Shown piece by piece: positions 1,562 through 62,025 of a DNA stretch of 64,000 nucleotides. The notes under the pieces are model-generated. The model did no database searches and had not been told where the DNA came from. It worked only from the letters and a program-made list of their open reading frames with translations. Source of the stretch: Escherichia phage ECML-4; sequence record JX128257. One strand, 5' to 3'. Position 1 is the stretch's first letter. Each line of letters opens with the position of its first letter. Both the position numbers and the translations under genes were made by a program.

Positions 1562-1602
1562 TTTAAATACCTCTGCAATCACTGCGGAGGTATTTTCTTA
1601 TG
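1562..1602 (+). promoter_or_regulatory. late-promoter-like motif TTTAAATA overlapping a 13 bp hairpin that sequesters the endolysin SD
   Basis: Inverted repeat AAATACCTCTGCA / TGCGGAGGTATTT (about 1565-1595) contains GGAGG 10 nt before the ATG at 1600. Confidence 0.45.
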
Positions 1603-2394
1603 GCCATTCTAAAACTTGGCAACCGAGGTTCTGAAGTCAAATCACTTCAGCAAAGCCTCAATAAAATCGGGTTCTCTCTTGTAGCTGATGGCATATTTGG
1701 CAAAGCGACCGAGAATGCTGTCAAATCCGTTCAGGCAGGTGCCGGACTGGTGATTGATGGTATTGCAGGTCCAAAAACCTTCTATGCTATCCGTAATGCC
1801 GGAGACGCTCATCAGGAACATCTTACCGAAGCCGACTTAGTTGACGCAGCGCGTGAACTTGGTGTCGAACTGGCCAGCATGAAAGCTGTTAACCAGGTCG
1901 AATCTCGGGGAACGGGTTTCACCAAAACAGGTAAGATCAAAACTCTGTTCGAGCGCCACATCATGTATAAGAAAGTGGCGGCTAAATTCGGACAAGCAAG
2001 AGCCAATGCTCTGTACCAACTTTACCCAACATTGGTTAACCCCAATTCTGGTGGCTATATCGGCGGAGACGCGGAGTTGGAACGCCTTCAGGGTGCAATC
2101 GCCCTTGATGAGGATTGCGCGTACGAGAGTGCGTCCTACGGCTTATTCCAGATCATGGGGTTCAATTGCCAGATATGTGGTTATCCGAACGCCAAAGAAA
2201 TGTTCACAGATTTTCTGACTGGTGAACGCGCACATCTTCTGGCATTTGTGAAATTCATCAAAGCTGACGCCAATATGTGGAAAGCATTGAAGAACAAAAA
2301 TTGGGCTGAGTTCGCCCGTCGGTACAATGGTCCAGCATATGCCAAGAACCAGTATGACACCAAACTAGCGGCGGCATACAAGAGTTTCTGTTAA
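1600..2394 (+). CDS. endolysin: N-terminal peptidoglycan-binding domain plus C-terminal N-acetylmuramidase-like catalytic domain
   Basis: N-terminus matches PG_binding_1 repeat pattern (SEVKSLQQSLNKIGF...DGIFGKATENAV...DGIAGPKT); C-terminus carries GLFQIMG-type muramidase motif. Confidence 0.85.
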   Translation: MAILKLGNRGSEVKSLQQSLNKIGFSLVADGIFGKATENAVKSVQAGAGLVIDGIAGPKTFYAIRNAGDAHQEHLTEADLVDAARELGVELASMKAVNQVESRGTGFTKTGKIKTLFERHIMYKKVAAKFGQARANALYQLYPTLVNPNSGGYIGGDAELERLQGAIALDEDCAYESASYGLFQIMGFNCQICGYPNAKEMFTDFLTGERAHLLAFVKFIKADANMWKALKNKNWAEFARRYNGPAYAKNQYDTKLAAAYKSFC

Positions 2395-7918: not shown

Positions 7919-8257
7919 ATGTACAAATTCCCGATATTAGAAACAGTGTACTCTGTTCACAAAAAGGAAGGTCCATTATTTGAAAATTTGGATATTCTGT
8001 TAAAGGAAAATGTCCGTATCCCTCTGGTTCTAAAGAGAAAGCAAATAGGATATAGCCATGACTGCCAAATAATGCGTTCTGAAGGCACCGACGTCTTACG
8101 CATCCGTCTAACATTTGTGTTGACAGGTAATCTGGACGGTATGGTGGTTAATCTGAAACCAACCACCATAGTCCACAGAACGGGTGGGAAAATATTATAT
8201 CGTTTATTAACTCATTTTGAGTTGGTGACAAAATGCTCTGCCACGGACGTTCTTTAA
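7919..8257 (+). CDS. hypothetical protein
   Basis: ORF abutting the previous stop. Confidence 0.45.
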   Translation: MYKFPILETVYSVHKKEGPLFENLDILLKENVRIPLVLKRKQIGYSHDCQIMRSEGTDVLRIRLTFVLTGNLDGMVVNLKPTTIVHRTGGKILYRLLTHFELVTKCSATDVL

Positions 8258-8638
8258 TCAATTTGTCCGTTTCAACCATATGGTGTCTGTTATCGGCTCT
8301 GGGTTGTTGACCACATAAAAAGTTATGGTTACACCCAGAGAATGATAATCGTCAGACAATGACACATCAACTGATTGTATCTCCGCTCTCGGTTCAAATA
8401 AAGCAATCGCGTCTTCAACTTTGTTTTTAACATCAACCTGAATTGTGGGATTCGTATTTTCCCCCAGCATGGTATACAGCCCAGCCCCGATACTTGGGTA
8501 TGTCGGCCAATCCCCAACTGTTGTCATCACGATATTTCGTACGGATTGCAACACGGCATAGACACCTGTTTTCTTTGTGACATCTTTGGTGACCGGATGC
8601 ATGCCAAACTTCAGGTCAATGTCCTTGTACTCTTTCAT
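8258..8638 (-). CDS. gp25: baseplate wedge protein, gp25-like
   Basis: Size and sequence pattern of the T4 gp25 / GPW family; ATG at 8638 with AAGGGG SD (track start 8671 is GTG). Confidence 0.75.
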   Translation of the reverse strand: MKEYKDIDLKFGMHPVTKDVTKKTGVYAVLQSVRNIVMTTVGDWPTYPSIGAGLYTMLGENTNPTIQVDVKNKVEDAIALFEPRAEIQSVDVSLSDDYHSLGVTITFYVVNNPEPITDTIWLKRTN

Positions 8639-8702
8639 GTTAAACCCCTTTGGATATTGCCTCTCCGGCACGAGAGGGCATTATCTACCCTCGCCAGTGT
8701 AA

Positions 8703-10328
8703 TCATGCGTCTTTACCACCAAAGTTGCCGCCATTATCCTCCAGTTCCGGTTTTATATCAATTGGACCAGGACCAGAAGTAGATACTGGAGTTGCCCCAG
8801 CGCGTGATGCAGCACGACCAGCACCTTCAGCATATTTGATGTTGCCTTCAATAGTCTGAGCCACCGACAACTTATCACAAACTATTTCACTAGCCAGTAT
8901 TTTAGGCACTTTCAAAGTGTTGGAAACTTCCAACATCTCACAGATGATACGCATCACGTTTTGCGCCTGAATTTCGGCCAGCTGTGAAAATTTCATCAAC
9001 GCCGTGCCAGCAACCACATTGGAGTAGTTCGATGAATGTAGATGATAGACCTCACCTGTCTTGCGCTGAACTTCAGTCCCACCAATGGTCAGGTTGTGAT
9101 CACGACCAACATAGTAACGTTTGTCAAACATCGTCAGATCATAATGATCTTTGACTGATTTATTGACCACGTCCCCGTCAGGAAGCATCTGCTTATAAGA
9201 CCCCGAGGAGTGCATCCAATGGAGACGTTCCCCGCCTGGTGTGTCATCAACCTCCATGATATGCCCTGACCGAGATGCCATGACATTGTTGTAAGGATAA
9301 CGAGACCCGCCAGCAGAAGGAACCGACACCTCTCCTGTGTTATCAATATCTTGAACACGCCCAGAAGGGGGCGGAGTTTCCTGAACTTTTGGTGTACGAT
9401 CAGGGATTGGCTCAGACCATTTACCATTTTGTTGCGCAGGAGCCGCCGATGCTGTCGTAGCAGGACCAGGCCAACGATAACCCAACACAGATGAGCGGCT
9501 GAAGCGACTCACCTTCACAGAATCTGATTGGTTGCCTCCAATACACCAAACATAATTGGCATCGAATTTCTGCACGAACGCAACGTGTCCGAATGTTGGG
9601 TTGTTGCCACGCCGGAATACAACAACAGCGCCGTAGCGGGGTTCCGACAAAGGGGAACCCCATTGCAAATATGAACGAGCCAAAGCCGAGCGCGTTGAAG
9701 TGTATCCTGCTTGGATTAACACCCATCCCACAAATGAAGCGCACCAGCTGACTTCATCTTCCGAAGCGCCCAAAGATGTTGTCTTGTGATATTCCAAAAT
9801 CCTTGGGTTATTATTGAATTTGCCAGAATATTCTTTGACACCTAATTCACCACGAGCCACTGTCATCCATTTCTCAGGATCATAACCGTCCACAGGCGGT
9901 TGAGGTTCTGGTTGTGGGTCGTCTTCAATCTTGACAGGAACATTTTCAACGGCGTTATATTTCTGTCTTTCTATAGATTGAACAACCTGGCCCAGCGCCA
10001 ACGGGTTTGTGTCTGAACCATCCGTTGGTGTCGCCGCTGGCCAAACCCAGGCGATACGAATATTTTGGTATGCTTCATCCAAAGCAAATCCCATAACATC
10101 CGACCCGACTGTAATACCCGTTGGAGACCAGCCTAAACCTGCCGAGGAGGCGTTGGATGCTGGCATGAGCATTTTACCCCAAGGCAATAATTCGGTAGGT
10201 AAGAGAGTGGTATCTTCCGTGTGTACACCATAGATGCGCACAGCGACGCGCCCGTTCTGGTCGGGATCATTCACGTCTTCAACGCGCCCGTAAAACCAAC
10301 GCAAGTTGTCTAACATATTGAAACCCAT
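8703..10328 (-). CDS. gp5: baseplate hub / tail-associated cell-wall hydrolase, gp5-like with CHAP (NlpC/P60-type) domain
   Basis: N-terminal gp5-like OB region, central Cys-His hydrolase motifs (SWCASFVGWVL ... GHVAFV), position next to gp25. Confidence 0.75.
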   Translation of the reverse strand: MGFNMLDNLRWFYGRVEDVNDPDQNGRVAVRIYGVHTEDTTLLPTELLPWGKMLMPASNASSAGLGWSPTGITVGSDVMGFALDEAYQNIRIAWVWPAATPTDGSDTNPLALGQVVQSIERQKYNAVENVPVKIEDDPQPEPQPPVDGYDPEKWMTVARGELGVKEYSGKFNNNPRILEYHKTTSLGASEDEVSWCASFVGWVLIQAGYTSTRSALARSYLQWGSPLSEPRYGAVVVFRRGNNPTFGHVAFVQKFDANYVWCIGGNQSDSVKVSRFSRSSVLGYRWPGPATTASAAPAQQNGKWSEPIPDRTPKVQETPPPSGRVQDIDNTGEVSVPSAGGSRYPYNNVMASRSGHIMEVDDTPGGERLHWMHSSGSYKQMLPDGDVVNKSVKDHYDLTMFDKRYYVGRDHNLTIGGTEVQRKTGEVYHLHSSNYSNVVAGTALMKFSQLAEIQAQNVMRIICEMLEVSNTLKVPKILASEIVCDKLSVAQTIEGNIKYAEGAGRAASRAGATPVSTSGPGPIDIKPELEDNGGNFGGKDA

Positions 10329-10342
10329 TAGTCAATTAGAAT

Positions 10343-10352
10343 CATGGGTTAT
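10343..10352 (-). promoter_or_regulatory. near-consensus late promoter (CATAAATA) upstream of gp5-like gene
   Basis: Reverse complement of GTTATTTATG about 20 nt upstream of the ATG at 10328. Confidence 0.35.
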
Positions 10353-10649
10353 TTATGGCGGGGATTTGAAATCTGTCGAATAGTAATATTATAGGAAGCT
10401 CTGCTTCCGTTCAACTTTATTCTTTTCGTTTCTACTCGCTGAAGCTCGTAACACCGCCTTGACAGGCAGTCCCATTCCAATGCCATGGAGGCATAAAGGC
10501 GAGGAAAATACTGTACACCTCAGAACATGCGTAGAAAAGGATTATTTTTGCTTCAAAACAAATTCAAACCCCAATTTACACAACACTTACTTCAGCAACA
10601 ACGGTGTTATAGCAATTTAAGGTTAAACGTTCCTGTCTTAACCTATAAA

Positions 10650-10681
10650 ACAGGTAAGCAAAGAAAACCCCACATTACGTG
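10650..10681 (-). terminator. rho-independent terminator (minus strand)
   Basis: AACCCCAC-ATTAC-GTGGGGTT stem followed on the minus strand by TTTTCTTTGCTT. Confidence 0.7.
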
Positions 10682-10835
10682 GGGTTGGAAGATTTCTTGG
10701 ACAAACGTATCTTTAGTGTCTCTGTTAGCAAATCAAGATGCCAAGGCATCGACTCGCTTATTTCAAATATGCTATAGCCATGTGCCTTTAATTCGTCACA
10801 CATCACAAAGTAGGAGAGTAAATCAATTTCAAAAA

Positions 10836-11639
10836 TTAAATGAAAATTTCAGTGACACTGTTAAATTTGACTTCATGTTCTTTCCCACACGAAGGACATT
10901 TAATTTTCGTCGCGTAACGGATACGAGGAATCTTTTTAAAGAAATCGTCGGATATATCTTGAACAATCTCAGATTCAATATTTTCCCCCACCCATTTAAC
11001 AAATTCATCTTTGACGCGTTGACGTTCTTTAGCAACATCAGGTGCTATGCCAGGCTCTGCCGGATTCTCTACTTTCCAAACCTGACCATCATCGTCATAC
11101 AAACAATCAATAAATGTCGCGATCATTTGCTCCACAGATGATGCTTCGTTGAGCACTGAGGCGTCCGAGAAGGACGGTTGACGCATCTTGATGTGATAGC
11201 CACCAGGGAGGTCAAATGTTTCCCTGAAGCCTTCTGGGGACACGCATTTCACTTGGTTGAGGGGGATCGGTAAAACAAGTTCTTGACCACATTCTTTAAG
11301 GCCAGAAACTGGTTCTTCACCTTCATTTGTGTCGGATGGAACTTTGTTGTTACATTTGTATCGTATCTTCATGACCTCGCCGATAGATATACAGCGCATC
11401 TTTAAAAATACTTCTTCAGTAACACCGATTGGCAGTTTACTAAAGGGAACCCCAGCGTCAACACAACTATCAAACAGTTGCTCCAGCGTCGCCACACGTT
11501 CACTCATAGGAGTGTTCGGATCAGCAACCTGAAGTAACATGGTCTGTTGCCCTGCTGTAAAAGCGCGGTATTTAATCACCGTCGGCCAGAAATCACTTTT
11601 GTGTGTTCTCTCAGTTTTGGGCAATGATGGTAAATTCAT
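10836..11639 (-). CDS. late structural protein with C-terminal zinc ribbon (possible baseplate hub component)
   Basis: ATG at 11639 with GGAG SD and TATAAATA 29 nt upstream; C-terminal CPSCGKEH motif. The longer track ORF start overlaps the divergent gene. Confidence 0.55.
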   Translation of the reverse strand: MNLPSLPKTERTHKSDFWPTVIKYRAFTAGQQTMLLQVADPNTPMSERVATLEQLFDSCVDAGVPFSKLPIGVTEEVFLKMRCISIGEVMKIRYKCNNKVPSDTNEGEEPVSGLKECGQELVLPIPLNQVKCVSPEGFRETFDLPGGYHIKMRQPSFSDASVLNEASSVEQMIATFIDCLYDDDGQVWKVENPAEPGIAPDVAKERQRVKDEFVKWVGENIESEIVQDISDDFFKKIPRIRYATKIKCPSCGKEHEVKFNSVTEIFI

Positions 11640-11667
11640 AATGTATCTCCACGGTATATTGTAACCA

Positions 11668-11675
11668 TATTTATA
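11668..11675 (-). promoter_or_regulatory. T4-type late promoter motif TATAAATA (minus strand)
   Basis: Exact TATAAATA on the minus strand upstream of the start at 11639. Confidence 0.5.
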
Positions 11676-11688
11676 ATGAGGACCGAAA

Positions 11689-12213
11689 ATGCACGCGTTC
11701 TGTTTCAGTAAAGTTGGAGAACAACTTACCATTAATTATCCGGATACAAATACGGATTTCTTTGTATTGCTAACGGATTTCGCAAATAAATTGGGGATCA
11801 AGAATATCGCCATGACTGTGGACGATATGAAATTTGGTCGTCTGGGTGTAAAAGATTTATTGAATTACGGATTCAACGTAATCATCGTCGATCAGACATA
11901 CAGCCCAATTGACGAGGAAGATGTTATTCCAGTTTGGGTTCAACGAGACATAAACACTCTGGATAAACATTATCCCGATTGTGTCATCATTGGCGAATTA
12001 ATACCATATTTTCATAAACGTCGTCGGCTTGAATCAATTAAAAGTTATTTTCAAGATAGCGATGACGGATATAAAATGGATGTCCTTACGAGCGGTTGGG
12101 TTGTGAAGAATACCACAGGCAATGCCGACCGAATTACTTCCCGTCTTTATGAATATGTTAAAGAACGGGATTATGAACTGGAGAACAATAATGCCAAACG
12201 TAGAACGCGCTGA
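11689..12213 (+). CDS. hypothetical protein
   Basis: ORF with GAGGA SD, divergent from the baseplate genes. Confidence 0.5.
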   Translation: MHAFCFSKVGEQLTINYPDTNTDFFVLLTDFANKLGIKNIAMTVDDMKFGRLGVKDLLNYGFNVIIVDQTYSPIDEEDVIPVWVQRDINTLDKHYPDCVIIGELIPYFHKRRRLESIKSYFQDSDDGYKMDVLTSGWVVKNTTGNADRITSRLYEYVKERDYELENNNAKRRTR

Positions 12214-12676
12214 TATTCAGCAGGTACAAGACGTCATCCTTCAACGCCTCCGCGCTGTGATCACAAATGAAAAGGGAGAAATTGCGCCAGGGTTTGAAGG
12301 CGCATTCGACAGTTTCGTTGCCGATGACCAGGGGAACCCCGTTGTACAAACGATCGCTGGCATGATTATGCTGAATAGCGAATTTATGGCCGATGGTAAA
12401 ATCCATTATTCTCCCAATCTCAGTGTTGACGGAGAATCTTTGGCTTCCGAAGTGGTTGATTTAACGGTTGCCGTTGGTGAGTTGGGTTATGTTTTGATGG
12501 TTTGCACCGCGCATTATGTGGACGCCAACGGCCATGTGTCATATGGTGATGAAGCGCGGGGAATCAAACGTCATGTAGATACTGCGGCGGTTCTGCAGCA
12601 GATCCGTCAGATGCAAGACAATATGGATTCCAAACCCCGCCTGATTTTGCCAGATAGTAAAATCGTGACAAGATAA
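12191..12676 (+). CDS. hypothetical protein
   Basis: ATG at 12191 with GGAGAA SD; the track ORF from 12122 would overlap the previous gene heavily. Confidence 0.45.
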   Translation: MPNVERADIQQVQDVILQRLRAVITNEKGEIAPGFEGAFDSFVADDQGNPVVQTIAGMIMLNSEFMADGKIHYSPNLSVDGESLASEVVDLTVAVGELGYVLMVCTAHYVDANGHVSYGDEARGIKRHVDTAAVLQQIRQMQDNMDSKPRLILPDSKIVTR

Positions 12677-12725
12677 TCCGGTCTAAATACCCATAACACA
12701 ATGAAACTTCGTTATGGGTATTTTT

Positions 12726-13325
12726 ATGAAATTTTGCGGAATCGACTATTCTTATGGCTGTCCTGCCATGTGCTTCTGGGATGATAAAGATCCTTTGGAT
12801 TTTGACCATCTTCATTTCTATGCGCATCATACTGTAGAAAAACATTGTCGTCAGGTACGGCATAACATCCTCATTTTACGCCAGCCGAAATATGAATCCC
12901 CAGAAGAACGCTTCTACAATATCTCCAAATGGGCCGAAGCTGTTCTTCTAACCGAGAAGCCTGATTTCATCACCCTTGAGGGGTACGCAATGGGCAACTC
13001 GAAGAATTCCAATAACATATGCCAGACTGCTGAAAATACATCTTTATTGAAGCAAGCAATGCGCCGGAATAATATGGAATTCCAGATCGTCACTCCTTCT
13101 TTCGTTAAAAAGCATTTCTGTGGTAAAGGAAACGCCGATAAATTGGTAATGATCGATCATTTCGAGAAGCTGTTCAACGTTAAGATGCGTGGTATAATGG
13201 ACATGTTGGACGTGAAGGATCCAAAGCCTATCGATGATCTTGTAGACTCATTCGCAAACATGGTGTCTGGACCTTACTTCATAGAAAATTATCCCGATTT
13301 CAATAGAGGTGTAAGAAATGATTAA
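12726..13325 (+). CDS. RuvC-like Holliday junction resolvase (putative)
   Basis: N-terminal GIDYS, internal LEGY and DDLVDSF acidic motifs resembling RuvC/RNase H-fold resolvases; 9 bp hairpin (12689-12719) directly upstream. Confidence 0.5.
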   Translation: MKFCGIDYSYGCPAMCFWDDKDPLDFDHLHFYAHHTVEKHCRQVRHNILILRQPKYESPEERFYNISKWAEAVLLTEKPDFITLEGYAMGNSKNSNNICQTAENTSLLKQAMRRNNMEFQIVTPSFVKKHFCGKGNADKLVMIDHFEKLFNVKMRGIMDMLDVKDPKPIDDLVDSFANMVSGPYFIENYPDFNRGVRND

Positions 13326-13614
13326 TTACTGGCTGTTGGCAGATATACTGCTTTTCGCCTTGCTGTTGATAACGGCATTTATTTGGGTTAAGGGATTTCT
13401 GACATTCCTACACTCGTTGAGTGCCATGATATCTTTCTATGCTGTGTCCCCCCATAGTGACGTCAATGTACGAGCGGCAAATCAATCTGACATGTTGGCT
13501 GAATACGTCATGATGCGTGATAAAGCAACCAGGATCGTCCTGTTTTCTACACTGGCGGGGGCGGTTATTATATTCATACAACACGTCTTGGAGGCAACTC
13601 ATGCCGTTTTATGA
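13318..13614 (+). CDS. hypothetical membrane protein
   Basis: Two hydrophobic segments; GAGGTG SD. Confidence 0.45.
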   Translation: MINYWLLADILLFALLLITAFIWVKGFLTFLHSLSAMISFYAVSPHSDVNVRAANQSDMLAEYVMMRDKATRIVLFSTLAGAVIIFIQHVLEATHAVL

Positions 13615-13846
13615 TTATGCCTGTACAGGTTGTGGTAATTCTTTCAGTACCAGAAGGTCTTGTGCTGAACGCCATACGCCTGAATTAGATCCATGCGCTG
13701 AATGTGGCGGTGAAATCAAAATGGTCATTGGAGCACCAAAGATCGTATCTGGTGTCCGTGGCCCACAATCCGCACCTGATGGCTTCAAAGACGTATTGCG
13801 TCATATTAAGAAGCAGTCTGGGAAGGGGAATACAATCGATGTCTGA
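13601..13846 (+). CDS. FmdB-family zinc-ribbon protein
   Basis: MPFYDYACTGCG ... CAECGG pattern (two CxxC pairs); GGAGG SD. Confidence 0.55.
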   Translation: MPFYDYACTGCGNSFSTRRSCAERHTPELDPCAECGGEIKMVIGAPKIVSGVRGPQSAPDGFKDVLRHIKKQSGKGNTIDV

Positions 13847-14081
13847 CCAACAAATAGCACAAGTCCTTACACCTGATTCATTCTCAGAATTGGTGTTGAT
13901 GCGAGCGAGCCAACGCAAGGAGTCTATTCTTGAAACGATGGCCAGTGTTTGTGAAGAGTACGACATCGAAGAGGCGAAAGTTAAGAAACTGATTACACCA
14001 CCTCTCCTGTCAAGGCTAACAGCTGAATGTTCTGATGCTCGGTTGTTGAAGGGTGAATTGAAATCTAAAAAACTCATTTAA
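13839..14081 (+). CDS. hypothetical protein
   Basis: ORF overlapping the previous stop. Confidence 0.4.
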   Translation: MSDQQIAQVLTPDSFSELVLMRASQRKESILETMASVCEEYDIEEAKVKKLITPPLLSRLTAECSDARLLKGELKSKKLI

Positions 14082-14090
14082 GGTTGTAAC

Positions 14091-14330
14091 ATGAGCAAAG
14101 AGCAAATTTATAAATTGTTGAAGGCGCAAGAGTATCTGCCAGGTTCTATTCGCTGGCGTCATGGTAGCCTCAACGAACATGCTGATGATATGGATCGCGT
14201 TCGTTTCACAACGCCGGAAGGTAAATCCTATGTCATCGAGTACCATACATTCTTGGAAGGCCATAAAACCTTCTCGGATGTGTACGATATTATTGAGATA
14301 GACCCAGCAAAACAAATGATTGCGGGTTAA
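14091..14330 (+). CDS. hypothetical protein
   Basis: ORF with AAGG SD. Confidence 0.45.
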   Translation: MSKEQIYKLLKAQEYLPGSIRWRHGSLNEHADDMDRVRFTTPEGKSYVIEYHTFLEGHKTFSDVYDIIEIDPAKQMIAG

Positions 14331-14334
14331 CTCA

Positions 14335-14425
14335 ATAGCAAAAGGCAGTATAATTACATCGTCGGAATAATAGACAAATACATTTACAGAATAGCCCGAA
14401 GGGGCGGATTATAGAGGAATATAAA
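14335..14425 (+). promoter_or_regulatory. gp32 leader: AU-rich region and small GCCC-GAAG-GGGC hairpin, candidate autoregulatory operator
   Basis: Seen in sequence; function inferred from T4 gene 32 translational autoregulation. Confidence 0.3.
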
Positions 14426-15463
14426 ATGGGTAACTTATTTGATCGTCTTAAACAATCTCGTGGCCAACAAGCCGAAGCTATGCAACAGCGTCTCGCTCAG
14501 CAAGGTCAGCGTGTTGGTGGCGGTCGTGACCCGCGCATCTGGAAGTGGACTTGGAATGAAAAAGGCACTTCCGAAAACATTATTCGTTTCCTGCCTATCC
14601 CTTTAGTGGACATGAAGGCTCAAGAAGAAGGCACCATCCCTGAAGATGCTGTGTTAACTCCATGCGCCATGATCATGAAACACGCTTTCCAGGGTGCTGG
14701 CGGCTGGTATATCGAAAACTCACCTCAGACTTTCGGTAACGATGATCCGGTTCGTGACCACGATCGTCCTCTGTGGGCACAACAGAAAGAAACGAACGAT
14801 GAAAAACTGAAGACAGTCCTGAAAAAACGTCTGCCGGACACCAAATACTACGCCAATATCCTGGTGATCAAAGATGGCAATAATCCGGAAAATAACGGCA
14901 AGGTCTTCTTGCTGGAATTCGGTAATGCCGTCAAGAAAATCCTGGATTCGGCTCAGAATCCTAAGTTCTCAACCGACCCGAAATTCGACCCGTTCGATAT
15001 GTGGGAAGGTGCGAATCTGATTCTGAATCTGTACGGCGAAGAGAAAGAGTTCGGAAACTGGAAAGGCCTGGTTGCCAACTTCACCAACGTGAAGTGGGAT
15101 AGTCCGGCACCGCTCGGAACCGACGAATACATTGAAGAGATCTGGGAAAAAGAGCACAGCTTGTTTGAGTTCTTTAATCCGGCCAACTTCAAATCGTACG
15201 AAGATCTGGAAAAACGTTTGCGCAAAGTTCTGGCCATCCCTGATAATCAGCCTCTGGTTGAAGGTGGTGCTTCTACTATGGCACATGCGCCTACCCAGTC
15301 TCAGGAACCCCAGCGCCCGACAGCGCAGGAAAGTCTGAACCAACAACAATCTCAGCCTTCTAATGCACAGCAATCTGTTCCAGCCAATAATGGTGGTGCG
15401 GGTGCCGATGCGAAACAGACGGCTTCCATTGATGAGTTCGAGCAGTTCCTGAAGCAAGACTAA
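14426..15463 (+). CDS. gp32: single-stranded DNA-binding protein, gp32-like
   Basis: N-terminal similarity to T4 gp32 (NIIRFLP ...), acidic C-terminal tail, strong SD. Confidence 0.9.
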   Translation: MGNLFDRLKQSRGQQAEAMQQRLAQQGQRVGGGRDPRIWKWTWNEKGTSENIIRFLPIPLVDMKAQEEGTIPEDAVLTPCAMIMKHAFQGAGGWYIENSPQTFGNDDPVRDHDRPLWAQQKETNDEKLKTVLKKRLPDTKYYANILVIKDGNNPENNGKVFLLEFGNAVKKILDSAQNPKFSTDPKFDPFDMWEGANLILNLYGEEKEFGNWKGLVANFTNVKWDSPAPLGTDEYIEEIWEKEHSLFEFFNPANFKSYEDLEKRLRKVLAIPDNQPLVEGGASTMAHAPTQSQEPQRPTAQESLNQQQSQPSNAQQSVPANNGGAGADAKQTASIDEFEQFLKQD

Positions 15464-15470
15464 TTTCACT

Positions 15471-15495
15471 AAAGCCCCTTCGGGGGCTTTTTAGT
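15471..15495. terminator. terminator hairpin between convergent genes
   Basis: AAGCCCC-TTCG-GGGGCTT followed by TTTTTAGTTTTT. Confidence 0.75.
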
Positions 15496-16435
15496 TTTTA
15501 ACGACGTCCTGCAACAATCCGAGTAAACTACTCTTCTCGGACGCCGTCAGGTTATCATTGCCTAATATATCCCTCTGGATGCCGATAGAGATCCTTTCGA
15601 AGTCTGCCAGGCTGATACCCGCCAAATTATTTACAAGCTGATCGAGTTGCTTGTAGGCCAGTAGGGCTTCACCTGTAAAGTTCCCTTCCTTAATTTTTTT
15701 ATACAGCTGTCCGGCTTTTGACGCTGCGGTTTCCCAATCTCCGGAAGCAAGAGCATCAGCAATGCCCAAAGGAAGAAAGTCGCTGGCGAGGCTGCGCGTT
15801 TCATATTCAGTCTCCGATAATACTTTATTGTAAGAGAACGATATATTGTACTGGTTAAATTGGTCGGCGGCACTTTTGTCGAGGTCGATGGAACTGAAGT
15901 TAATAGGATGAGCCTCCGTCACATAAACACGGTGCACCACCTGGTCTTCTGTATCCATTTGCTCTATACAAATATCAGTCACGAAATCTTCGTAATAACC
16001 CATCTTGGTCGTATATGGGTCGAATATCAAATTCTTCCATTTATCCATGACCGACTTTTCATAATAGTCGTTGGCAAGGAGAAATGATAACTCCAGATCA
16101 ACGTTTGTTTTGTTGTTCGGCATCTTAATATGGTTGCCGTTATTTGTCATTGGCGTTGTATCAATCCCAGTACCAGGCAAAGAAGCAACCATACACATCA
16201 TTTGTAAGGAACGAGACGTCTGGTTTGTCCCTCCAAAGAAAGCGTTTACAATACGGGCGCTTTGTTTGAACAGATCCCCAAATGATGAAGATGAAGGATA
16301 TGCGTTGCCGTCATTGGATAGAGTCGCATTAGAATCGAAAATACCAGGCGGCAACGGGATTGTAACACGAAATCTGTTCTTGCGGGAAATCCCCCGCTGA
16401 AGCAGTTGCGTTAGAAAATTGCGATAGTCTTCCAC
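15491..16435 (-). CDS. hypothetical late protein (probably virion/structural)
   Basis: Proposed GTG start at 16435 with GGAG SD and TATAAATA about 35 nt upstream; the track ORF to 16630 would overlap the divergent gene. Start uncertain. Confidence 0.5.
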   Translation of the reverse strand: MEDYRNFLTQLLQRGISRKNRFRVTIPLPPGIFDSNATLSNDGNAYPSSSSFGDLFKQSARIVNAFFGGTNQTSRSLQMMCMVASLPGTGIDTTPMTNNGNHIKMPNNKTNVDLELSFLLANDYYEKSVMDKWKNLIFDPYTTKMGYYEDFVTDICIEQMDTEDQVVHRVYVTEAHPINFSSIDLDKSAADQFNQYNISFSYNKVLSETEYETRSLASDFLPLGIADALASGDWETAASKAGQLYKKIKEGNFTGEALLAYKQLDQLVNNLAGISLADFERISIGIQRDILGNDNLTASEKSSLLGLLQDVVKN

Positions 16436-16469
16436 GATGAGGACTCCATTTAAATAATATATCTGCTGA

Positions 16470-16477
16470 TATTTATA
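16470..16477 (-). promoter_or_regulatory. T4-type late promoter motif TATAAATA (minus strand)
   Basis: Exact TATAAATA on the minus strand in the divergent intergenic region. Confidence 0.5.
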
Positions 16478-16489
16478 AGGAGTTGACAA

Positions 16490-17194
16490 ATGGCCAAGAA
16501 CGCTATGGGTGAAGAAGACCCGTTGTTGCTTCCTGCCGAGATGGACGCCCCAGAATTGGTCAAGCGTTACATCCGCAAATATCGTCAACATTTTGGACCA
16601 GAAGCGAAACGTAATATCCGTCGGTCTCACGTGTGGTTTATGGAACGCGTATCGAAAGATGCCAATTTATCCCCCAACCACATGATGAAGGCGTTTGCTG
16701 AAAATAAACGTCCTGTTCAGGGTGTGCGCTATATTGTTGGTCGCATGTACTATTTCAAATATGATGCGCTGACCAAAGATGAACTCCCGTATTGGGATAT
16801 GTATCCTCTTGTATTCTTCTTCAATTTTGTGAAGGGTGACGGGGTAAAATTTGGGGAACGTGGTGTGACCTATCTTTATGGTCTCAACCTTCATTATTTG
16901 CCACCAAAGCTCAGATTATTAGTGTTTGAAGATCTTATCAAGTTGAGGAACGAAAGAGCGTATCGTTCTAAAACTCGTTTGAGACTTACTTGGGATGCCC
17001 TGAAACGGTTCGCCAATCACCCTCTGTACAACCATTGTGTGAAACTGTACCGCGCTGATCAATTTCGTTCACAGCTTTATGAGATTGAGCCTCAATACTG
17101 GGAAGTTGTTTTGTTTATGCGCACTGCTCGATTCCAGAAACAGAGCCAGATGTCTGTTTGGAAAGACGCTCGTCGTAAACACAAAAATGGTTAG
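16490..17194 (+). CDS. hypothetical protein
   Basis: ORF with AAGGAG SD. Confidence 0.55.
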   Translation: MAKNAMGEEDPLLLPAEMDAPELVKRYIRKYRQHFGPEAKRNIRRSHVWFMERVSKDANLSPNHMMKAFAENKRPVQGVRYIVGRMYYFKYDALTKDELPYWDMYPLVFFFNFVKGDGVKFGERGVTYLYGLNLHYLPPKLRLLVFEDLIKLRNERAYRSKTRLRLTWDALKRFANHPLYNHCVKLYRADQFRSQLYEIEPQYWEVVLFMRTARFQKQSQMSVWKDARRKHKNG

Positions 17195-17256
17195 TTCTAA
17201 AAGCCGTTCTATGGGATAATTCGCGAACGGCTTTCTATAAACATGAGGTTCCATAT

Positions 17257-17988
17257 ATGTCATATCTACACAGAATTTTTGGTATTGAATTCAGTTCCAA
17301 CAGCGTTCGTTATGACCGCACTCACAAAGACTCCGGCGGCAAGACTGGTTACGAACTTGGATCTCGTTTGGGGTATACTGAAGAGCGCCGCCTGAGTGAA
17401 CAAACTCTTTTCACAGCTATGGGTATTGAATTTGAATCCGAGGCTGCTTTAGATCTGGGGGATGAGGTTCGTTTTGGTAAGCCTGAAGTCTTAGAATTTG
17501 TTGAAGACTTCGTGACAGGTTATACCCATGCCGCTAACAATCGTCGCGCCGCCAATGATGCTGTTGGTAAATTTCATTTTGCTGTGAAATACCTTGCCGA
17601 CAAGCGTATTCAAATGGAAGCCGAATTCAGTGAAGAAAACTTGAAAGCAGTTTTCGGAGAGACTGGCGATTTCCTATTGACAGAAGAATCCGGTACTTCT
17701 TCCGCTCGTCATTTCTTTAGTCAACCGTTTATCGTGAAGGGATGTAAAATTCTGATTGATGAAGAACATGTTTTTGGTATTCATCCGGATGTTGTATACG
17801 ATGAAGAGACGTGTCTGATCATTTCCAGATTGTTTAACAGCCTGGCGTACACTTCATATTCATTGATCGAACGCTGTATGGAAGAAGAGCATCGCCAAGT
17901 TGTTGTCAACAAAATTCGCTTACATGTTGAGCAGAATTTTAATGGATTCCATTGCGCGTCTGGTGAGATTCCAAACTTCTACATGTAA
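17257..17988 (+). CDS. hypothetical protein
   Basis: ORF with GAGG SD. Confidence 0.5.
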   Translation: MSYLHRIFGIEFSSNSVRYDRTHKDSGGKTGYELGSRLGYTEERRLSEQTLFTAMGIEFESEAALDLGDEVRFGKPEVLEFVEDFVTGYTHAANNRRAANDAVGKFHFAVKYLADKRIQMEAEFSEENLKAVFGETGDFLLTEESGTSSARHFFSQPFIVKGCKILIDEEHVFGIHPDVVYDEETCLIISRLFNSLAYTSYSLIERCMEEEHRQVVVNKIRLHVEQNFNGFHCASGEIPNFYM

Positions 17989-18005
17989 AGATATCAGGGG
18001 GCTGT

Positions 18006-18293: not shown

Positions 18294-18466
18294 TATTCAC
18301 GTCAGTCCGCGCTGTACCAGCGTTCCGTTGTCTAACACAGAAGTGTTAACCAACTTTTCAATAAAAAGTGGTTTACATCTTCTAAAAAGGCAGTATATTA
18401 ATGTTCCAGACGCACAGTTGAACATTAAACTGCCAAAGAAGGTTACTACACAAAAGGGTTTTTATT

Positions 18467-19426: not shown

Positions 19427-19454
19427 TTTAACTCAGAAGCATTCAATAGATGAA

Positions 19455-19485: not shown

Positions 19486-19498
19486 ATTGGAGCACACC

Positions 19499-36087: not shown

Positions 36088-37056
36088 TTAGAAGCTGTCG
36101 CCTTCGGTATCAAAGCGGCCTTTGTGCAACGGTTCCAGTTCAATAAATGTCATGTCAATCTGGGTTGACACGATGCTATCATCTTTGTGGACAGCATATG
36201 AAGAATCCGGCGTCTCGTTGACAAACATGTTTGACAAAACACAAGTCGATATTCGATGTAACCATTTATTGCGTTCCCCCTGCACCATGAACGTGATGTC
36301 AAATGTGGAAGGGTGTAGGTAGAATGCACTGGAATTCTTGTTGTATTTGTATTCAGGGTACATATGCATCTTGAACAGACGAATGATCTCCCTCACCATT
36401 TTCGCCTCTTTTTGAGATCGAGGGGTGAATTTAAAGGTGAATGGAATTTCGCGGTTGCGCACCCCTTGGAATATCATTTCTACATATGGGTTTGTCATTG
36501 TGCCCGTGAACAACTCTAATGTATCGTGAGCATTAATTGTTGGTAAGAACGGAATTGCTTCCGAAGCAGATTGAATCGCCTTTGTGGCAGCAAATCGCCC
36601 CATTTCTTTTCCCACGTTTAATGCATCGCCAAGTTTGAATTGGCTCATATCTTGGGCAGCGCGGGATAAGAATTGGGCACCCATACCAGCTAATCCTAAC
36701 TCAGAGCCGTTCCAACCAACGCCATAGTTGGTTGTAATAGATTCAGGCATGCATAACACTATGGACTCGTTAGAGCGGACATGACGCGCCCAAGCATATT
36801 TGCTGATAGAACCTGATTTAGAACCATAAACCACAGGAGTTTTTCCCAGTGGGTTTTGGATAGGGTTCTCAACGGTTTGAGTCGTTGTGTCGCCGTATGA
36901 CGATCCTGATATGCGGTTAATATTGAATAAAACATAATGACCGAGGGTTTTACCCCCCGTTATATCCAACGGATAGACCAATTGCTTCTGAGACTTGGCC
37001 AAGCCTTTTGTGTTCAGAACTTTGATCTTATCGATGGTCGACTTGAAATTCGCCAT
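36088..37056 (-). CDS. baseplate/tail-tube junction structural protein (gp48/gp54-like?)
   Basis: 322 aa; first gene of the minus-strand hub operon. Confidence 0.4.
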   Translation of the reverse strand: MANFKSTIDKIKVLNTKGLAKSQKQLVYPLDITGGKTLGHYVLFNINRISGSSYGDTTTQTVENPIQNPLGKTPVVYGSKSGSISKYAWARHVRSNESIVLCMPESITTNYGVGWNGSELGLAGMGAQFLSRAAQDMSQFKLGDALNVGKEMGRFAATKAIQSASEAIPFLPTINAHDTLELFTGTMTNPYVEMIFQGVRNREIPFTFKFTPRSQKEAKMVREIIRLFKMHMYPEYKYNKNSSAFYLHPSTFDITFMVQGERNKWLHRISTCVLSNMFVNETPDSSYAVHKDDSIVSTQIDMTFIELEPLHKGRFDTEGDSF

Positions 37057-37108
37057 GGTCTGAAGCCCTTAATTAGAATAGAGTAATGACACTATTTAGG
37101 ACTAGAAT

Positions 37109-37729
37109 ATGGCTATGTATTTGCAGGGGAAGTATGTTCCCGTAAATCCCAAGAAATATAAAGGCGATGTGAACAAAATAGTTTTTCGTTCATCACTAGA
37201 ACTTGTCGCCTTCAAATTCTGTGATATGAATCCTGCTATTGTTTATTGGTCATCCGAAGAAACCGTAATCCCATATATCTCTCCAGTTGATGGTCGCGCC
37301 CACCGCTATTTTATGGATTTGAAAGTATGGACTCGTCGACAAGACTCTGAAGAGTTACAGATAACTCTTATTGAAATAAAACCCAAAGACCAAATTAAAG
37401 AACCCCGAAAAACAAAAACGATGAAGGAATCAACGTTCAATAATTCGATGCGTACATGGCTGGTGAACCAAGCGAAGTGGACCGCCACCAAAGAGCATTG
37501 TGCTAAAGTTGGTTGGAAATTCATTATTTGGACGGAAGAGCATTTGGTACCAGGAGAAGATCCCGAAGTTAAAAAACAATTTGCGCTACGTTCTAAGAAA
37601 AAGCGCGAGGTCGAAATGGAAGATCGACGCCGCGCTCAAAGAATTAATGCGTTGAAAGAGCAGATGAAAAAGGAAACTTCCAACAAACAAACGACAAAAC
37701 CTGAGGATGACGGTTTGTTGTTACCCTGA
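37109..37729 (+). CDS. hypothetical protein with Lys-rich C-terminus (possible head-completion gp4-like protein)
   Basis: AGGA SD; divergent from the baseplate hub operon as T4 gene 4 is; the call is low-confidence inference. Confidence 0.4.
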   Translation: MAMYLQGKYVPVNPKKYKGDVNKIVFRSSLELVAFKFCDMNPAIVYWSSEETVIPYISPVDGRAHRYFMDLKVWTRRQDSEELQITLIEIKPKDQIKEPRKTKTMKESTFNNSMRTWLVNQAKWTATKEHCAKVGWKFIIWTEEHLVPGEDPEVKKQFALRSKKKREVEMEDRRRAQRINALKEQMKKETSNKQTTKPEDDGLLLP

Positions 37730-50976: not shown

Positions 50977-51786
50977 TTACACCACAGCCAGTTCACAACG
51001 GGCGGAAGTTACAGAATGGCCGTCCGCGTCTTCTACAACACACCAGTACTCACCCTCAGAAGCAGCGGTGACAGCGTGGTTGACCAGAGACGCAGTCGCT
51101 GCTGTTGGGTTAACACCAGCATCAATCACCACACCTTCGCCGCCAGGGGTGTCAGAGTAATACCACGCATAAGAGTACGGCGTGGTGCCGCCAGCAGCAA
51201 CGATAGTGAATGTCGCATCAGCGCCGTCGGCCACGTCCTGAGAAGCAGCCAGATCGGTTGTCAACGACAACAGTCCTGCGATGGTAATGACGGTAGAATC
51301 GGTGTGATTTCCTTCTACAGTAACACCATAAACTGTAACAGAACCAGACTGAAGCAGTTTGAATTTACCACCGCCGATATGGATCGCCTTCGTCAGGTCG
51401 CCAGAATACCAGTTCACTCCTTGATATGTTGCGTTCACAGGAGCAACAGTGGCCAGCAATTCAACGATTTGGCCTATTTCCCCGCTGGCCGTAGCCGGAG
51501 TAATGGTCAGACCTGTGGTAAGAACAGCAGTCGGATCATGGATTTCATAAGAAACCTGGAAACCTACTGGCTTGGTCGGATCAACTTTGGTGACACCGTC
51601 CGCTTGCAGATTACTTTTGGTCAGCAACGCATCAAGACCTTTACATTCGGTCAGGATCTCATCAGGATCTTGATTTAGGCTGGTTTTTTGCCAACCCTTT
51701 GCAACACCCGTCACGACATGATTGCGTTCGGTTTCCGGTTTGTTGCGGACAACTTCCGGCGCGACTAATACTGTGATTGTTGGCAT
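50977..51786 (-). CDS. Ig-like domain protein (possible Hoc-like capsid decoration or adhesin)
   Basis: Thr/Val/Gly/Ala-rich beta-strand repeats with Ig-like signature (YSYAWYYS ... EYWCVVEDADG); ATG at 51786 with GGAGGA SD. Confidence 0.5.
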   Translation of the reverse strand: MPTITVLVAPEVVRNKPETERNHVVTGVAKGWQKTSLNQDPDEILTECKGLDALLTKSNLQADGVTKVDPTKPVGFQVSYEIHDPTAVLTTGLTITPATASGEIGQIVELLATVAPVNATYQGVNWYSGDLTKAIHIGGGKFKLLQSGSVTVYGVTVEGNHTDSTVITIAGLLSLTTDLAASQDVADGADATFTIVAAGGTTPYSYAWYYSDTPGGEGVVIDAGVNPTAATASLVNHAVTAASEGEYWCVVEDADGHSVTSARCELAVV

Positions 51787-52157
51787 GGTTTCCTCCACTC
51801 ATCCAAATCGTTGTTCAGAGCCATCATCAGCTCGTTATCTGGTTCGTATGAACCGGAACATAAATCATCTCTCCAAACTCCTAACGTCAACAGCGCTGCC
51901 TTTAGACGAGGATGTTGGTTCTTATCCGTTTTCAACACCAGCATTCGACACACAGCTTCAGTTTCGAAAGTATTGAAAAGAATAATCAATTGATTGATAA
52001 GCACACGAGGACTTTTCCCTGGCACAAATCTCTTCAATGATTGATTAATTAGCGAAATTCGCTGAATGTCTACCATCAAATCATCCCGTGAGACACCAGC
52101 AGTGATATAGTGTCTCAGGGCATATTCCATCAAATTGCTTTCGTCAACGATAGCCAT
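51765..52157 (-). CDS. hypothetical protein
   Basis: ORF. Confidence 0.45.
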   Translation of the reverse strand: MAIVDESNLMEYALRHYITAGVSRDDLMVDIQRISLINQSLKRFVPGKSPRVLINQLIILFNTFETEAVCRMLVLKTDKNQHPRLKAALLTLGVWRDDLCSGSYEPDNELMMALNNDLDEWRKPCQQSQY

Positions 52158-52189: not shown

Positions 52190-52603
52190 TTATTTAATCT
52201 GGAGTTTTTCAGTCAATTGAGCAATAATTTCATTCCGGTCGGTAGAAACAATTCCCAAAGGTTCGGCCAATGTTTTAAGATCATTGATGTCAAGCAAGAG
52301 AAGGACTTCAACCGTAATATCGGTGGATACCACAGTGCCTGGTTTCATAGGCTTACCGAACTTGTCTAACCCATATCGACGTAAAGTACCCGCCAGCCCC
52401 GTAAGTTCCGCGAGAAGCTCCTTCGTGCCGTCTTTGTATTCACAGACCCAACCGTAGTCACCAGCATAAACGACGCCACCGTCGCCCCCCTGAGGGATGT
52501 TATCCACCACACGCTGGAGATAACTTGGGAGTTTGTTTTCTTCCTGGGCGGTGATTTCCTGGGAAGTTTGGGTATTTTCAATTTTCTTTGGTGTCTTCGC
52601 CAT
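52190..52603 (-). CDS. hypothetical protein
   Basis: ATG at 52603 with AGGAGAA SD. Confidence 0.45.
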   Translation of the reverse strand: MAKTPKKIENTQTSQEITAQEENKLPSYLQRVVDNIPQGGDGGVVYAGDYGWVCEYKDGTKELLAELTGLAGTLRRYGLDKFGKPMKPGTVVSTDITVEVLLLLDINDLKTLAEPLGIVSTDRNEIIAQLTEKLQIK

Positions 52604-61502: not shown

Positions 61503-61738
61503 CTCGTAATCCCTCCGGCACAGATAATATTCAGTTCACCGCGACGGAAACCGCCTTGCCCATCGTCCAACTTAGTCAGAGGTGTATGTGCATCTCGAAC
61601 TTTCTGAGCGAACTCTTCCGACACCACCAGATGACCCATCAGAGGAGTCTTTTCTTGTTTTGGGGTGGATTCAAAATAGTCACCGAACGTCGCTTCCATA
61701 TCCAGCACAGACATATCTTCAATTCGTTGCATTGCCAT
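61499..61738 (-). CDS. hypothetical protein
   Basis: ORF with AGGAAA SD. Confidence 0.45.
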   Translation of the reverse strand: MAMQRIEDMSVLDMEATFGDYFESTPKQEKTPLMGHLVVSEEFAQKVRDAHTPLTKLDDGQGGFRRGELNIICAGGITR

Positions 61739-61744
61739 GATGTA

Positions 61745-61815
61745 TTTCCTTGTAAAAGAAAGGGGAACGGGCTAATAATAACCCATTCCCCTTTATTGAA
61801 GAACGCAATCGCAGT
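61745..61815 (-). terminator. terminator hairpin within a repeated intergenic element (minus strand)
   Basis: Minus-strand CGTTCTTCAATAAAGGGGAATGGG-TTATTATTAG-CCCGTTCCCC then TTTCTTTT. Confidence 0.6.
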
Positions 61816-61819
61816 CAGA

Positions 61820-61987
61820 TTACTTTTTCTTCAGCTCTTCCAGCTTGGCTTCAATTTGGTCCAGAATCTCTTTACCTTTCTGGACGATGGCTTCACCGTC
61901 TTGCGCGTGTTTACGAAAAACCAGAGCGCCAGCAATGAAACCAACAACCACGCCTGGGAGCGCATACACCAACAGATCTTGTAACAT
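61820..61987 (-). CDS. small single-pass membrane protein (55 aa) with its own late promoter
   Basis: ORF below the 60 aa track cutoff; GTGAGGAT SD; TATAAATA 31 nt upstream; one TM helix; terminator downstream. Confidence 0.4.
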   Translation of the reverse strand: MLQDLLVYALPGVVVGFIAGALVFRKHAQDGEAIVQKGKEILDQIEAKLEELKKK

Positions 61988-62017
61988 GATTTATATCCTC
62001 ACTTTTATAAGCAAGGA

Positions 62018-62025
62018 TATTTATA
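62018..62025 (-). promoter_or_regulatory. T4-type late promoter motif TATAAATA (minus strand)
   Basis: Exact TATAAATA upstream of the small ORF starting at 61987. Confidence 0.45.

Follow-up and report, generated by a model that had tools for sequence, protein, structure and literature searches.

Octamers matching the T4 late-promoter sequence in a Kuttervirus are best explained as -10-like elements of T4-type late promoters and are one spelling of a broader family motif

We report that three copies of the octamer TATAAATA in a stretch of 64,000 nucleotides from Escherichia phage ECML-4 (JX128257; the whole stretch is hereafter called the window) are best explained as the -10-like elements of T4-type late promoters, a reading in which we have high confidence. 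The evidence comes from the placement of the copies upstream of genes, from their conservation among relatives, from the enrichment of a wider motif class to which they belong, and from genes for the corresponding transcription factors.

The window derives from a Kuttervirus (Ackermannviridae), a Vi1-like myovirus that is ~99% identical to the Salmonella phages Maynard and vB_SenM-AKM_ssTn. Identity to Maynard is 99.2% over window bases 8000-28000, and the genome of vB_SenM-AKM_ssTn (OR122688.1; 158,291 bp) contains the whole window contiguously at ~99% identity; it served here as the whole-genome proxy for the window's phage (hereafter the proxy). Gene starts were checked against the annotation of Maynard, whose starts a codon-usage gene caller matches almost everywhere. 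A length-based gene caller mis-called starts, and the ORF that it picked at 61586..61984 was discarded as spurious. Conservation was assessed in seven genomes, namely the window itself, PhiSH19, a Klebsiella Taipeivirus, Shigella phage AG3, Enterobacter phage EspM4VN, Dickeya phage DP23.1 and Serratia phage Kevin.

The only exact copies of TATAAATA in the window are the three on the minus strand that the original prediction had listed (sites 1, 2 and 3; Table 1). Their spacing and the quality of the ribosome-binding sites behind them also proved to be as claimed: the last motif base lies 29, 35 and 31 positions from the start codon at sites 1, 2 and 3, and the three starts carry the Shine-Dalgarno sequences GGAG, GGAG and GAGGA, respectively. 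Near-consensus variants stand, again as claimed, before the gp5-like gene (CATAAATA) and the endolysin gene (TTTAAATA). The octamer is no more frequent than chance would have it, with 3 copies observed and 1.81 expected (at least 3 in 26 of 100 shuffles of the window), and the same holds for one-mismatch matches in the window (51 versus 57 expected). Motif frequency had been proposed as the check that could refute the finding; since both counts are at chance while position is non-random, we rejected frequency as a criterion, as it would wrongly reject a finding whose signal is carried by position. We defined the promoter zone in the window as non-coding sequence 15-50 nt upstream of a same-strand start, which covers 1.1% of positions. 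All three copies of TATAAATA fall within this zone, compared with 13 of 186 (7.0%) other octamers of composition A5T3 (P = 3.4e-4), and the hexamer TAAATA does so in 8 of its 19 occurrences, compared with 27 of 729 (3.7%) for other A4T2 hexamers in the window (Fisher P = 5e-7). The proxy has four exact copies of TATAAATA, all of them 27-34 nt upstream of same-strand starts. Judged from sequence, the three boxes are very probably real, correctly placed and evolutionarily conserved promoters of late genes.

Table 1. Predicted late promoters and associated features, with positions as numbered in the window.
Feature	Position	Strand	Details
Predicted late promoter, site 1: TATAAATA, -10-like, A at -12	11668..11675	-	Exact match; non-coding; 28-29 nt before ATG 11639; predicted start ~11662
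Baseplate hub gene, putative single-gene late unit	10836..11639	-	PF12322 T4_baseplate, 175.6 bits; phrog_150
Intrinsic-terminator-like hairpin ending the hub unit	10666..10686	-	9-bp stem followed by T-run; terminator annotated in Maynard
Predicted late promoter, site 2: TATAAATA	16470..16477	-	Exact match; 34-35 nt before GTG 16435; predicted start ~16464
Baseplate tail-tube initiator gene (T4 gp48/gp54-like)	15491..16435	-	phrog_3629 tail tube protein, E 2e-180
Bidirectional terminator closing the tail-tube unit	15471-15490	both	Terminator-like hairpin
Predicted partner late promoter TTTAAATA for gp2-like DNA end protector gene (16490..17194)	16449..16456	+	33 nt before ATG 16490
Predicted late promoter, site 3: TATAAATA	62018..62025	-	Exact match; immediately follows the 411-aa gene's stop codon; 30-31 nt before ATG 61987; predicted start ~62012
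Predicted 12-bp hairpin ATATCCTTGCTT/AAGTGAGGATAT	61993..62020	-	5' arm starts inside the promoter; 3' arm holds GAGGA
Gene for 55-aa putative single-pass membrane protein	61820..61987	-	Product MLQDLLVYALPGVVVGFIAGALVFRKHAQDGEAIVQKGKEILDQIEAKLEELKKK; phrog_3879, unknown function
Predicted late promoter variant CATAAATA for gp5-like tail lysozyme (8703..10328) and gp25-like (8258..8638) genes	10350..10357	-	Non-coding
Predicted late promoter variant TTTAAATA for endolysin gene (1600..2394)	1562..1569	+	30 nt before start
Predicted late promoter TCTAAATA for RuvC-like Holliday-junction resolvase gene	12682..12689	+	Leader hairpin 12685-12723
Predicted late promoter CCTAAATA for baseplate tail-tube cap, wedge and following genes (36088..37056, on to 32182)	37093..37100	-	Non-coding
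Tentative candidate, -8 variant CTTAATTA, before head-completion gene (37109..37729)	37068..37075	+	33 nt upstream
gp33-type late-transcription co-activator gene	13839..14081	+	PF16805 Trans_coact, 68.5 bits (cut-off 25); phrog_254, E 4e-23

The exact octamer would account for only four promoters, too few for a late programme, so we carried out an unbiased k-mer scan of all 6-mers in the zone from -55 to -18 of the 209 genes of the proxy. The top 6-mer was TAAATA, which precedes 31 genes against 1.45 expected (P 4e-31), and the top 7-mer was CTAAATA, not ATAAATA. Among the 69 copies of TAAATA in the proxy, 29 are positioned, by which we mean that they lie outside coding sequence with a same-strand start 21-49 nt downstream; behind them are genes encoding tailspikes, tail fibre, neck, sheath, scaffold and baseplate proteins, the endolysin, the gp5-like and gp2-like proteins and the RuvC-like resolvase. 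One positioned site, at proxy position 68394, falls within the loop of a terminator and probably represents a false positive. The base at -12 is C at 18 positioned sites, A at 8, T at 3 and G at none, whereas the 40 non-positioned copies have C, A, T and G in 7, 8, 12 and 13 cases; position -13, the first T of the T4 sequence, shows no preference among the 29. Exact TATAAATA makes up 4 of these 29 sites genome-wide. The exact T4 octamer had been treated as the relevant consensus, a view that we replace: the motif of the family is nCTAAATA, the -12 position favouring C over A and A over T and excluding G, and TATAAATA is one of the spellings that N[C>A>T]TAAATA permits and forms no separate 'exact T4' class. 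Variants at -8 (ACTAATTA and ACTAAGTA) precede some abundant late genes and are modestly enriched in the promoter zone, as are TAATTA variants (5 of 42 in the zone). The motif class also emerged from another genus. Over the initial 50 kb of Kevin, a Serratia phage (Miltonvirus, 53% GC), TAAATA stands before 15 genes against 0.44 expected (P 2e-19), and of the 15 copies of CTAAATA, 13 are positioned, before genes for tailspikes, sheath, tube, portal, scaffold and major capsid proteins; neither of the two exact copies of TATAAATA in these 50 kb is positioned.

Sites 1 and 2 would drive single-gene units, encoding the baseplate hub and the tail-tube initiator, each closed by a terminator. Of the seven Ackermannviridae genomes, 6 keep the octamer at site 1, that of the Serratia phage among them (TATAATTA replaces it in AG3), and 5 keep it at site 2 (Dickeya DP23.1 and EspM4VN have TATAAGTA, a -8 variant). 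This conservation is weaker evidence than that at the gp5-like site, since the two intergenic regions are short and, as a whole, conserved; at the gp5-like site CATAAATA is invariant in 7 of 7 genomes, with strongly diverged flanks. The deviant spellings TATAATTA and TATAAGTA are probably still promoters, since the same -8 variants precede other late genes. The original prediction that the genes behind sites 2 and 3 encode late, probably virion-associated proteins stands for site 2: in Vi01 and AG3, the orthologues of the product of 15491..16435 carry the annotation Gp54 baseplate tail tube, and virion mass spectrometry detected tail-tube initiator orthologues in LIMEstone1 and Sajous1. Site 2 is faced by the candidate promoter of the gp2-like gene, at which TTAAATA is kept in 7 of 7 genomes. 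With a predicted start at ~16462, this promoter would interlock face to face with that of site 2.

The phage and its close relative encode the factors that such promoters would call for. The search for gp55 and gp33 homologues, suggested along with the original prediction, returned a gp33-type co-activator gene within the window (Table 1), annotated as 'late promoter transcription factor' in related records, as well as two genes in the proxy: a gp55-family sigma of 256 aa (phrog_234, E 1e-53) and a gp45-type clamp (36465..37133; phrog_223, E 5e-65), the latter scoring 21.2 bits against Pfam gp45-slide_C, below the cut-off of 25. Both of these genes lie outside the window, and their presence rests on the 99%-identical relative. 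The gp55-like protein is assigned to its family by PHROGs and by tblastn, in which its nearest relatives outside the phage family are annotated gp55 proteins, such as those of cyanophages (e.g., S-PM2) and Vibrio phage nt-1, at 24-30% identity. It has no Pfam match and no direct match to the solved T4 gp55 (PDB), and is therefore strongly diverged, a divergence that fits an altered preference at -12. A T4-like late programme dependent on gp55, gp33 and the sliding clamp, as had been proposed, is very likely: the factors are present, and sites 1 and 2 precede baseplate genes.

In the mechanism that we propose, the core of the host RNA polymerase together with the phage gp55-family sigma would read the boxes as -10-like elements, helped by the gp33-type co-activator and the clamp. 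The sigma would need TAAATA at -11 to -6; at -12 it would accept A, T or, most commonly, C, but not G, and at -13 any base. Transcription would start ~6 nt downstream of the motif and yield leaders of 23-29 nt that carry the Shine-Dalgarno sequence. It is improbable that the boxes are instead sigma-70 -10 elements read by the unmodified host polymerase, and thus early or constitutive promoters. TATAAA is one base from TATAAT, and at site 3 the preceding stop codon yields TGaTATAAA, which is like an extended -10; yet none of the three TATAAATA sites has a sigma-70-type -35/-10 pair overlapping the motif, no -35-like hexamer being found at the right spacing at any of them. The phage does also use the sigma-70-like hallmark TTCAAT-N14-TATAAT, and TATAAT was likewise enriched upstream of genes in the scan of the proxy (16 versus 2.1), but this early-type motif of the family is a different, two-box sequence, and the word TAAATA mostly follows C genome-wide, giving CTAAAT, which lacks the first T of TATAAT. 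The baseplate proteins encoded behind sites 1 and 2 also speak against this reading.

Site 3 would drive a gene that lies in a minus-strand block of early-type genes, comprising rIIA, rIIB, topoisomerase II and many small genes. Its 55-aa product contains a single hydrophobic helix that is predicted to span the membrane (mean Kyte-Doolittle value of 2.36 across residues 5-23) and then a charged tail, and is annotated as 'putative membrane protein' in Dickeya phage Ds23CZ; searches gave no Pfam match and no significant NCBIfam match, the sub-threshold hit to ZapG reaching 16 bits against a cut-off of 150. Late expression of this gene is plausible, and we found no support for the virion role that had been ascribed to its product. 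We also considered a role as a holin, for which we found no evidence, and paralogy of the two small membrane proteins encoded behind exact octamers, which was rejected (E 0.16, with only 7 residues aligned). The cassette formed by TGA-TATAAATA and the small gene is kept in Kuttervirus, Agtrevirus and Limestonevirus, and is absent at the corresponding locus in the Klebsiella and Serratia phages. Here a hairpin predicted to mask the ribosome-binding site would overlap the promoter with its 5' arm; four genera retain this hairpin, with a change from C-G to U-G. No terminator-like site was found between the 411-aa gene and site 3, so that read-through RNA is plausible there. Early read-through transcripts would stay untranslated, and only late transcripts starting inside the hairpin would be translated.

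We folded each leader twice, from upstream of the motif and from the predicted start, placed by the T4 rule under which the octamer spans -13 to -6. The folding energy drops in strength from -15.5 kcal/mol in the long RNA to -2.7 in the late RNA at site 3, from -7.0 to -1.7 at site 1, from -9.0 to -4.5 at site 2, and from -18.0 to -4.6 for the endolysin leader. In the predicted endolysin hairpin (1565-1595), the 3' end of the motif and CCUCUGC pair with the Shine-Dalgarno sequence GGAGG, and Maynard's annotation labels the stretch 1568-1592 as a terminator overlapping the ribosome-binding site. The resolvase leader has a consensus stem of 13 bp (-13.4 kcal/mol) with one compensatory pair, found in the Serratia phage; insertions in the AG3 leader are matched on both arms, as judged by eye.

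Such structures could suggest that TAAATA is kept as the A/T-rich base of a hairpin, pairing with TATTTA in a terminator or translational operator, and not as a promoter. AAATA-TATTT pairing does occur at the foot of strong hairpins, some of them followed by a T-run, as in the endolysin and RuvC-like genes, and both the positioned proxy site in a terminator loop and the terminator annotated by Maynard would suit this explanation, which we nevertheless regard as scarcely probable. Structure is weak at site 1 as well as at site 2, and a hairpin is missing altogether from many positioned sites; the motif is also strand-specific, with 8 copies of TAAATA and 2 of TATTTA in the promoter zone of the window. 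Pairing explains neither the preference at -12 nor the fixed distance of 21-49 nt to the start, and a promoter and a hairpin are compatible, as in T4 gene e. Finally, chance occurrence of an A/T-rich word in A/T-rich intergenic DNA, which the unremarkable octamer count and the 7% of same-composition words in the same zone might invite, is a very remote prospect and effectively refuted by the placement of 3 of 3 copies in the window and 4 of 4 in the proxy, the conservation of the sites across genera, and the enrichment of the motif class with its replication in another genus.

Many positioned promoters run into a hairpin in predicted folds, the 5' arm extending from the last bases of TAAATA through a C-rich stretch and the 3' arm holding the G-rich Shine-Dalgarno sequence. 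Pairing of the initiation region with nucleotides upstream of the start has a median score of 6.6 at 29 sites and 2.6 at 77 controls (Mann-Whitney P 0.0016); 17 of the 29 sites, tailspike genes included, and 27 of the 77 controls score at or above the threshold. Some of these hairpins could also act as terminators. The base at -12 appears fixed site by site across genera, being C where abundant virion proteins are encoded and A or T in front of the genes for the baseplate hub, the gp2-like protein and lysis, which suggests classes of promoter strength read by an altered -12 pocket of the sigma. We tentatively advance, as a conjecture that may well prove wrong, that the published family motif CTAAATAcCcc is a fused pair, in which a gp55-type -10 box (nCTAAATA) is joined to an anti-Shine-Dalgarno C-run upstream of the late start, that this pair gates about half of the late genes, and that the -12 base sets strength classes. 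In early read-through RNA, the G-rich ribosome-binding site would be paired with the C-run, which late RNA would lack. If this is true, late transcripts would be the sole templates for translation of about half of the late genes, among them those for tailspikes, endolysin, resolvase and the 55-aa protein, and a device known from four genes of T4 would be at work across the genome.

The T4 genes in question are e, soc, 49 and I-TevI, where a hairpin sequestering the ribosome-binding site carries the late promoter within its 5' strand (Uzan and Miller, 2010; PMC3014915). A resemblance to T4 e, soc and 49 is predicted at about half of the positioned sites, among them site 3 and those of the endolysin and RuvC-like resolvase genes, and the endolysin and resolvase are functional counterparts of e and 49; unlike in the T4 gate genes, the arrangement is a product of structure prediction here, and it appears far more widespread. 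As in T4 late promoters, the element at the focal sites is a single -10-like box without a -35, the octamer at all three is identical to that of T4, genes of the gp55, gp33 and gp45 families are present, and sites 1 and 2, like other positioned sites, stand before virion or lysis genes. T4 gp55 takes up the flipped -12 adenine in a deep pocket, and the -9 and -8 adenines enter further pockets. Unlike in T4, the family consensus has C, not A, at -12, -13 is not conserved, -8 tolerates T or G at some late genes, the sigma of 256 aa is too diverged to match T4 gp55 directly, and the phage is a member of Ackermannviridae, outside the T4 family. A similar consensus is known from Aeromonas phage Aeh1, whose late promoters have CTAAATA from -12 and whose gp55 is substantially diverged (Nolan et al., 2006; PMC1524935). 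The CTAAATA core, C at -12 and a diverged gp55 are shared with Aeh1, but Aeh1 is a T4-related phage of another family, and in the phages studied here A and T are also used at -12 and are conserved site by site.

T4-like late promoters and gp55, gp33 and gp45 in Vi1-like phages have been known since 2011-2012, and the motif is already published. Kutter et al. (2011) described gp55, gp33 and gp45 homologues in CBA120, ViI and AG3 and noted that the late recognition sequence of the ViI family had yet to be found. Allowing one mismatch to TATAAATA, Anany et al. (2011) listed 17 predicted late promoters for AG3, those of the gp2 and gp5 genes among them, and Adriaenssens et al. (2012) predicted 33 in LIMEstone1. 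CTAAATAcCcc and TTCAAT[N14]TATAAT are quoted as the two regulatory motifs of Viunalikevirus/Ackermannviridae phages in a 2020 paper (PMC7283392); the former is traced to Adriaenssens et al. (2012) and is also used in PMC9965104. Our unbiased scan of the proxy and of Kevin recovers this hallmark class, with which the focal sites share the TAAATA core, the strand-specific position 21-49 nt before a start and a -12 base other than G. Unlike the hallmark, the three focal sites (TATAAATAtggt, TATAAATAtcag and TATAAATAtcct) have A at -12 and no C-run, and a literal match to CTAAATAcCcc is absent at all of them. A 2024 review of Ackermannviridae mentions neither promoters nor sigma factors nor transcriptomes, and our literature search found no start-site or RNA-seq study for any phage of this family. 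One late promoter of the family has already been employed to drive a reporter gene.

As given, the finding carries little weight, the kind of element and the family motif being already published; what may be new is the role of the C-run as an anti-Shine-Dalgarno in a widespread late-only gate, and the site-specific conservation of the -12 base. Kutterviruses are widely used in biocontrol and as reporter phages. Late units of Kuttervirus genomes can be annotated by a cleaner rule, N[C>A>T]TAAATA in non-coding sequence with a start codon 21-49 nt downstream. If confirmed, the change from A to C that nature has made at -12, the base flipped by T4 gp55, would offer a ready-made specificity experiment, and the placing of promoters in hairpins would account for the C-run in the family motif and would matter for payload genes inserted behind such promoters.

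The window holds eight positioned copies of TAAATA, before the genes for the endolysin, gp5-like protein, hub, resolvase, gp2-like protein, tail-tube initiator, tail-tube cap and 55-aa protein. The variant at the gp5-like gene stands 21 nt before the first in-frame ATG. The resolvase gene product matches Pfam RuvC at 22.7 bits (cut-off 22.2), and its site keeps TAAATA in 7 of 7 genomes, with C, G or A at -12. Upstream of the tail-tube cap gene, CCTAAATA is found 36 nt before ATG 37056, and the tentative plus-strand candidate CTTAATTA faces it.

At several sites, the late promoter box leads into a predicted hairpin whose 3' arm contains the Shine-Dalgarno sequence, and the late start site, placed by the T4 spacing rule, would fall within the 5' arm of the same hairpin. 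Such arrangements are predicted both in the window and in OR122688.1, the ~99% identical genome of Salmonella phage vB_SenM-AKM_ssTn (see table). Across all positioned sites, the predicted pairing exceeds that of control genes (P 0.0016), and the hairpin of the resolvase leader shows covariation. Four T4 genes (e, soc, 49 and I-TevI) have an arrangement similar to the predicted one. On this prediction, the "cCcc" of CTAAATAcCcc, the motif published for the family, would be accounted for as an anti-Shine-Dalgarno element.

Predicted promoter elements, hairpins and associated genes in the window and in OR122688.1
Feature	Location	Strand	Remark
Predicted promoter-in-hairpin	window 1565-1595	+	
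Predicted promoter-in-hairpin	window 12685-12723	+	resolvase leader
Predicted promoter-in-hairpin	window 61993-62020	-	
Predicted promoter-in-hairpin sites	OR122688.1 58, 2268, 14006, 31068, 34246, 142833, 154661		
Candidate late box, tail tube	OR122688.1 21443		ACTAATTA
Candidate late box, portal	OR122688.1 22044		ACTAATTA
Candidate late box, major capsid	OR122688.1 25918		ACTAAGTA
Candidate late box, tail completion	OR122688.1 32511		ACTAAAAA
Facing late boxes	window 16449-16477		gp2-like / tail-tube initiator
Facing late boxes	window 37068-37100		head completion / tail-tube cap
Hairpin GGAAGC-AGAG-CTTCC plus TATAAT	window 10388-10408	-	conserved; upstream of gp5-like late box
55-aa ORF	window 61820-61987	-	MLQDLLV N-terminus; Kyte-Doolittle mean 2.36
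56-aa ORF	OR122688.1 30896-31066	+	MLQILLV N-terminus; Kyte-Doolittle mean 2.12
ATTAAATA	window 52191-52198	-	overlaps stop codon of gene 52190..52603
TTCAAT-N14-TATAAT	window 3365-3390, 13173-13198	+	
TTCAAT-N14-TATAAT	window 40453-40478, 50708-50733, 58964-58989, 61775-61800	-	

Outside the window, exact TAAATA is absent upstream of the tail tube, portal, major capsid and tail-completion genes of OR122688.1, where -8 variants are found 30-46 nt upstream of the genes; in Serratia phage Kevin, orthologues of the first three carry exact CTAAATA boxes. In T4, a pocket of gp55 binds the promoter base at -8; the variants at these four virion genes suggest that this base is less constrained in the present phage.

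Late boxes face each other in two divergent gene pairs with intergenic regions of 52-54 nt. The start sites would lie at 16462 (+) and 16464 (-) between the gp2-like and tail-tube initiator genes, and at ~37081 (+) and ~37087 (-) between the head completion and tail-tube cap genes, so that each -10 box would sit within the leader of the opposite transcript; two open complexes should be mutually exclusive at each pair. The former pair is kept in all seven genomes compared; the + member of the latter is a candidate -8 variant, CTTAATTA. A tandem arrangement precedes the gp5-like (tail lysozyme) gene in a 507-nt gap without a called gene: a sigma-70-like -10 element, TATAAT, immediately follows a hairpin, with the late box CATAAATA ~33 nt on. 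Most of the seven genomes keep this order.

Exact TATAAATA boxes occur four times in the genome, two of them preceding ORFs for small, predicted single-pass membrane proteins. Paralogy of the two proteins was not demonstrable by pairwise comparison (E 0.16), and a family search returned no family name for either. Kutter et al. reported these phages to lack an identified holin; a lysis role for the two proteins is pure speculation.

A possible ninth late promoter of the window is the minus-strand ATTAAATA, which the non-coding filter left out of the positioned late promoters. The start of gene 51765..52157 is 33 nt on, followed by gene 50977..51786, whose product carries a tail fibre or Ig-domain structural annotation.

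The second published motif of this phage family, TTCAAT-N14-TATAAT, occurs six times in the window with at most one mismatch (0.77 expected), and these copies are probably early promoters. Shortly after the 55-aa gene comes the copy at 61775-61800, which overlaps a terminator-like hairpin.

At ~3340-3423, the window is without the homing endonuclease gene that OR122688.1, the closest complete relative, carries at the counterpart position between the phoH-like gene and nrdA (73649-74311).
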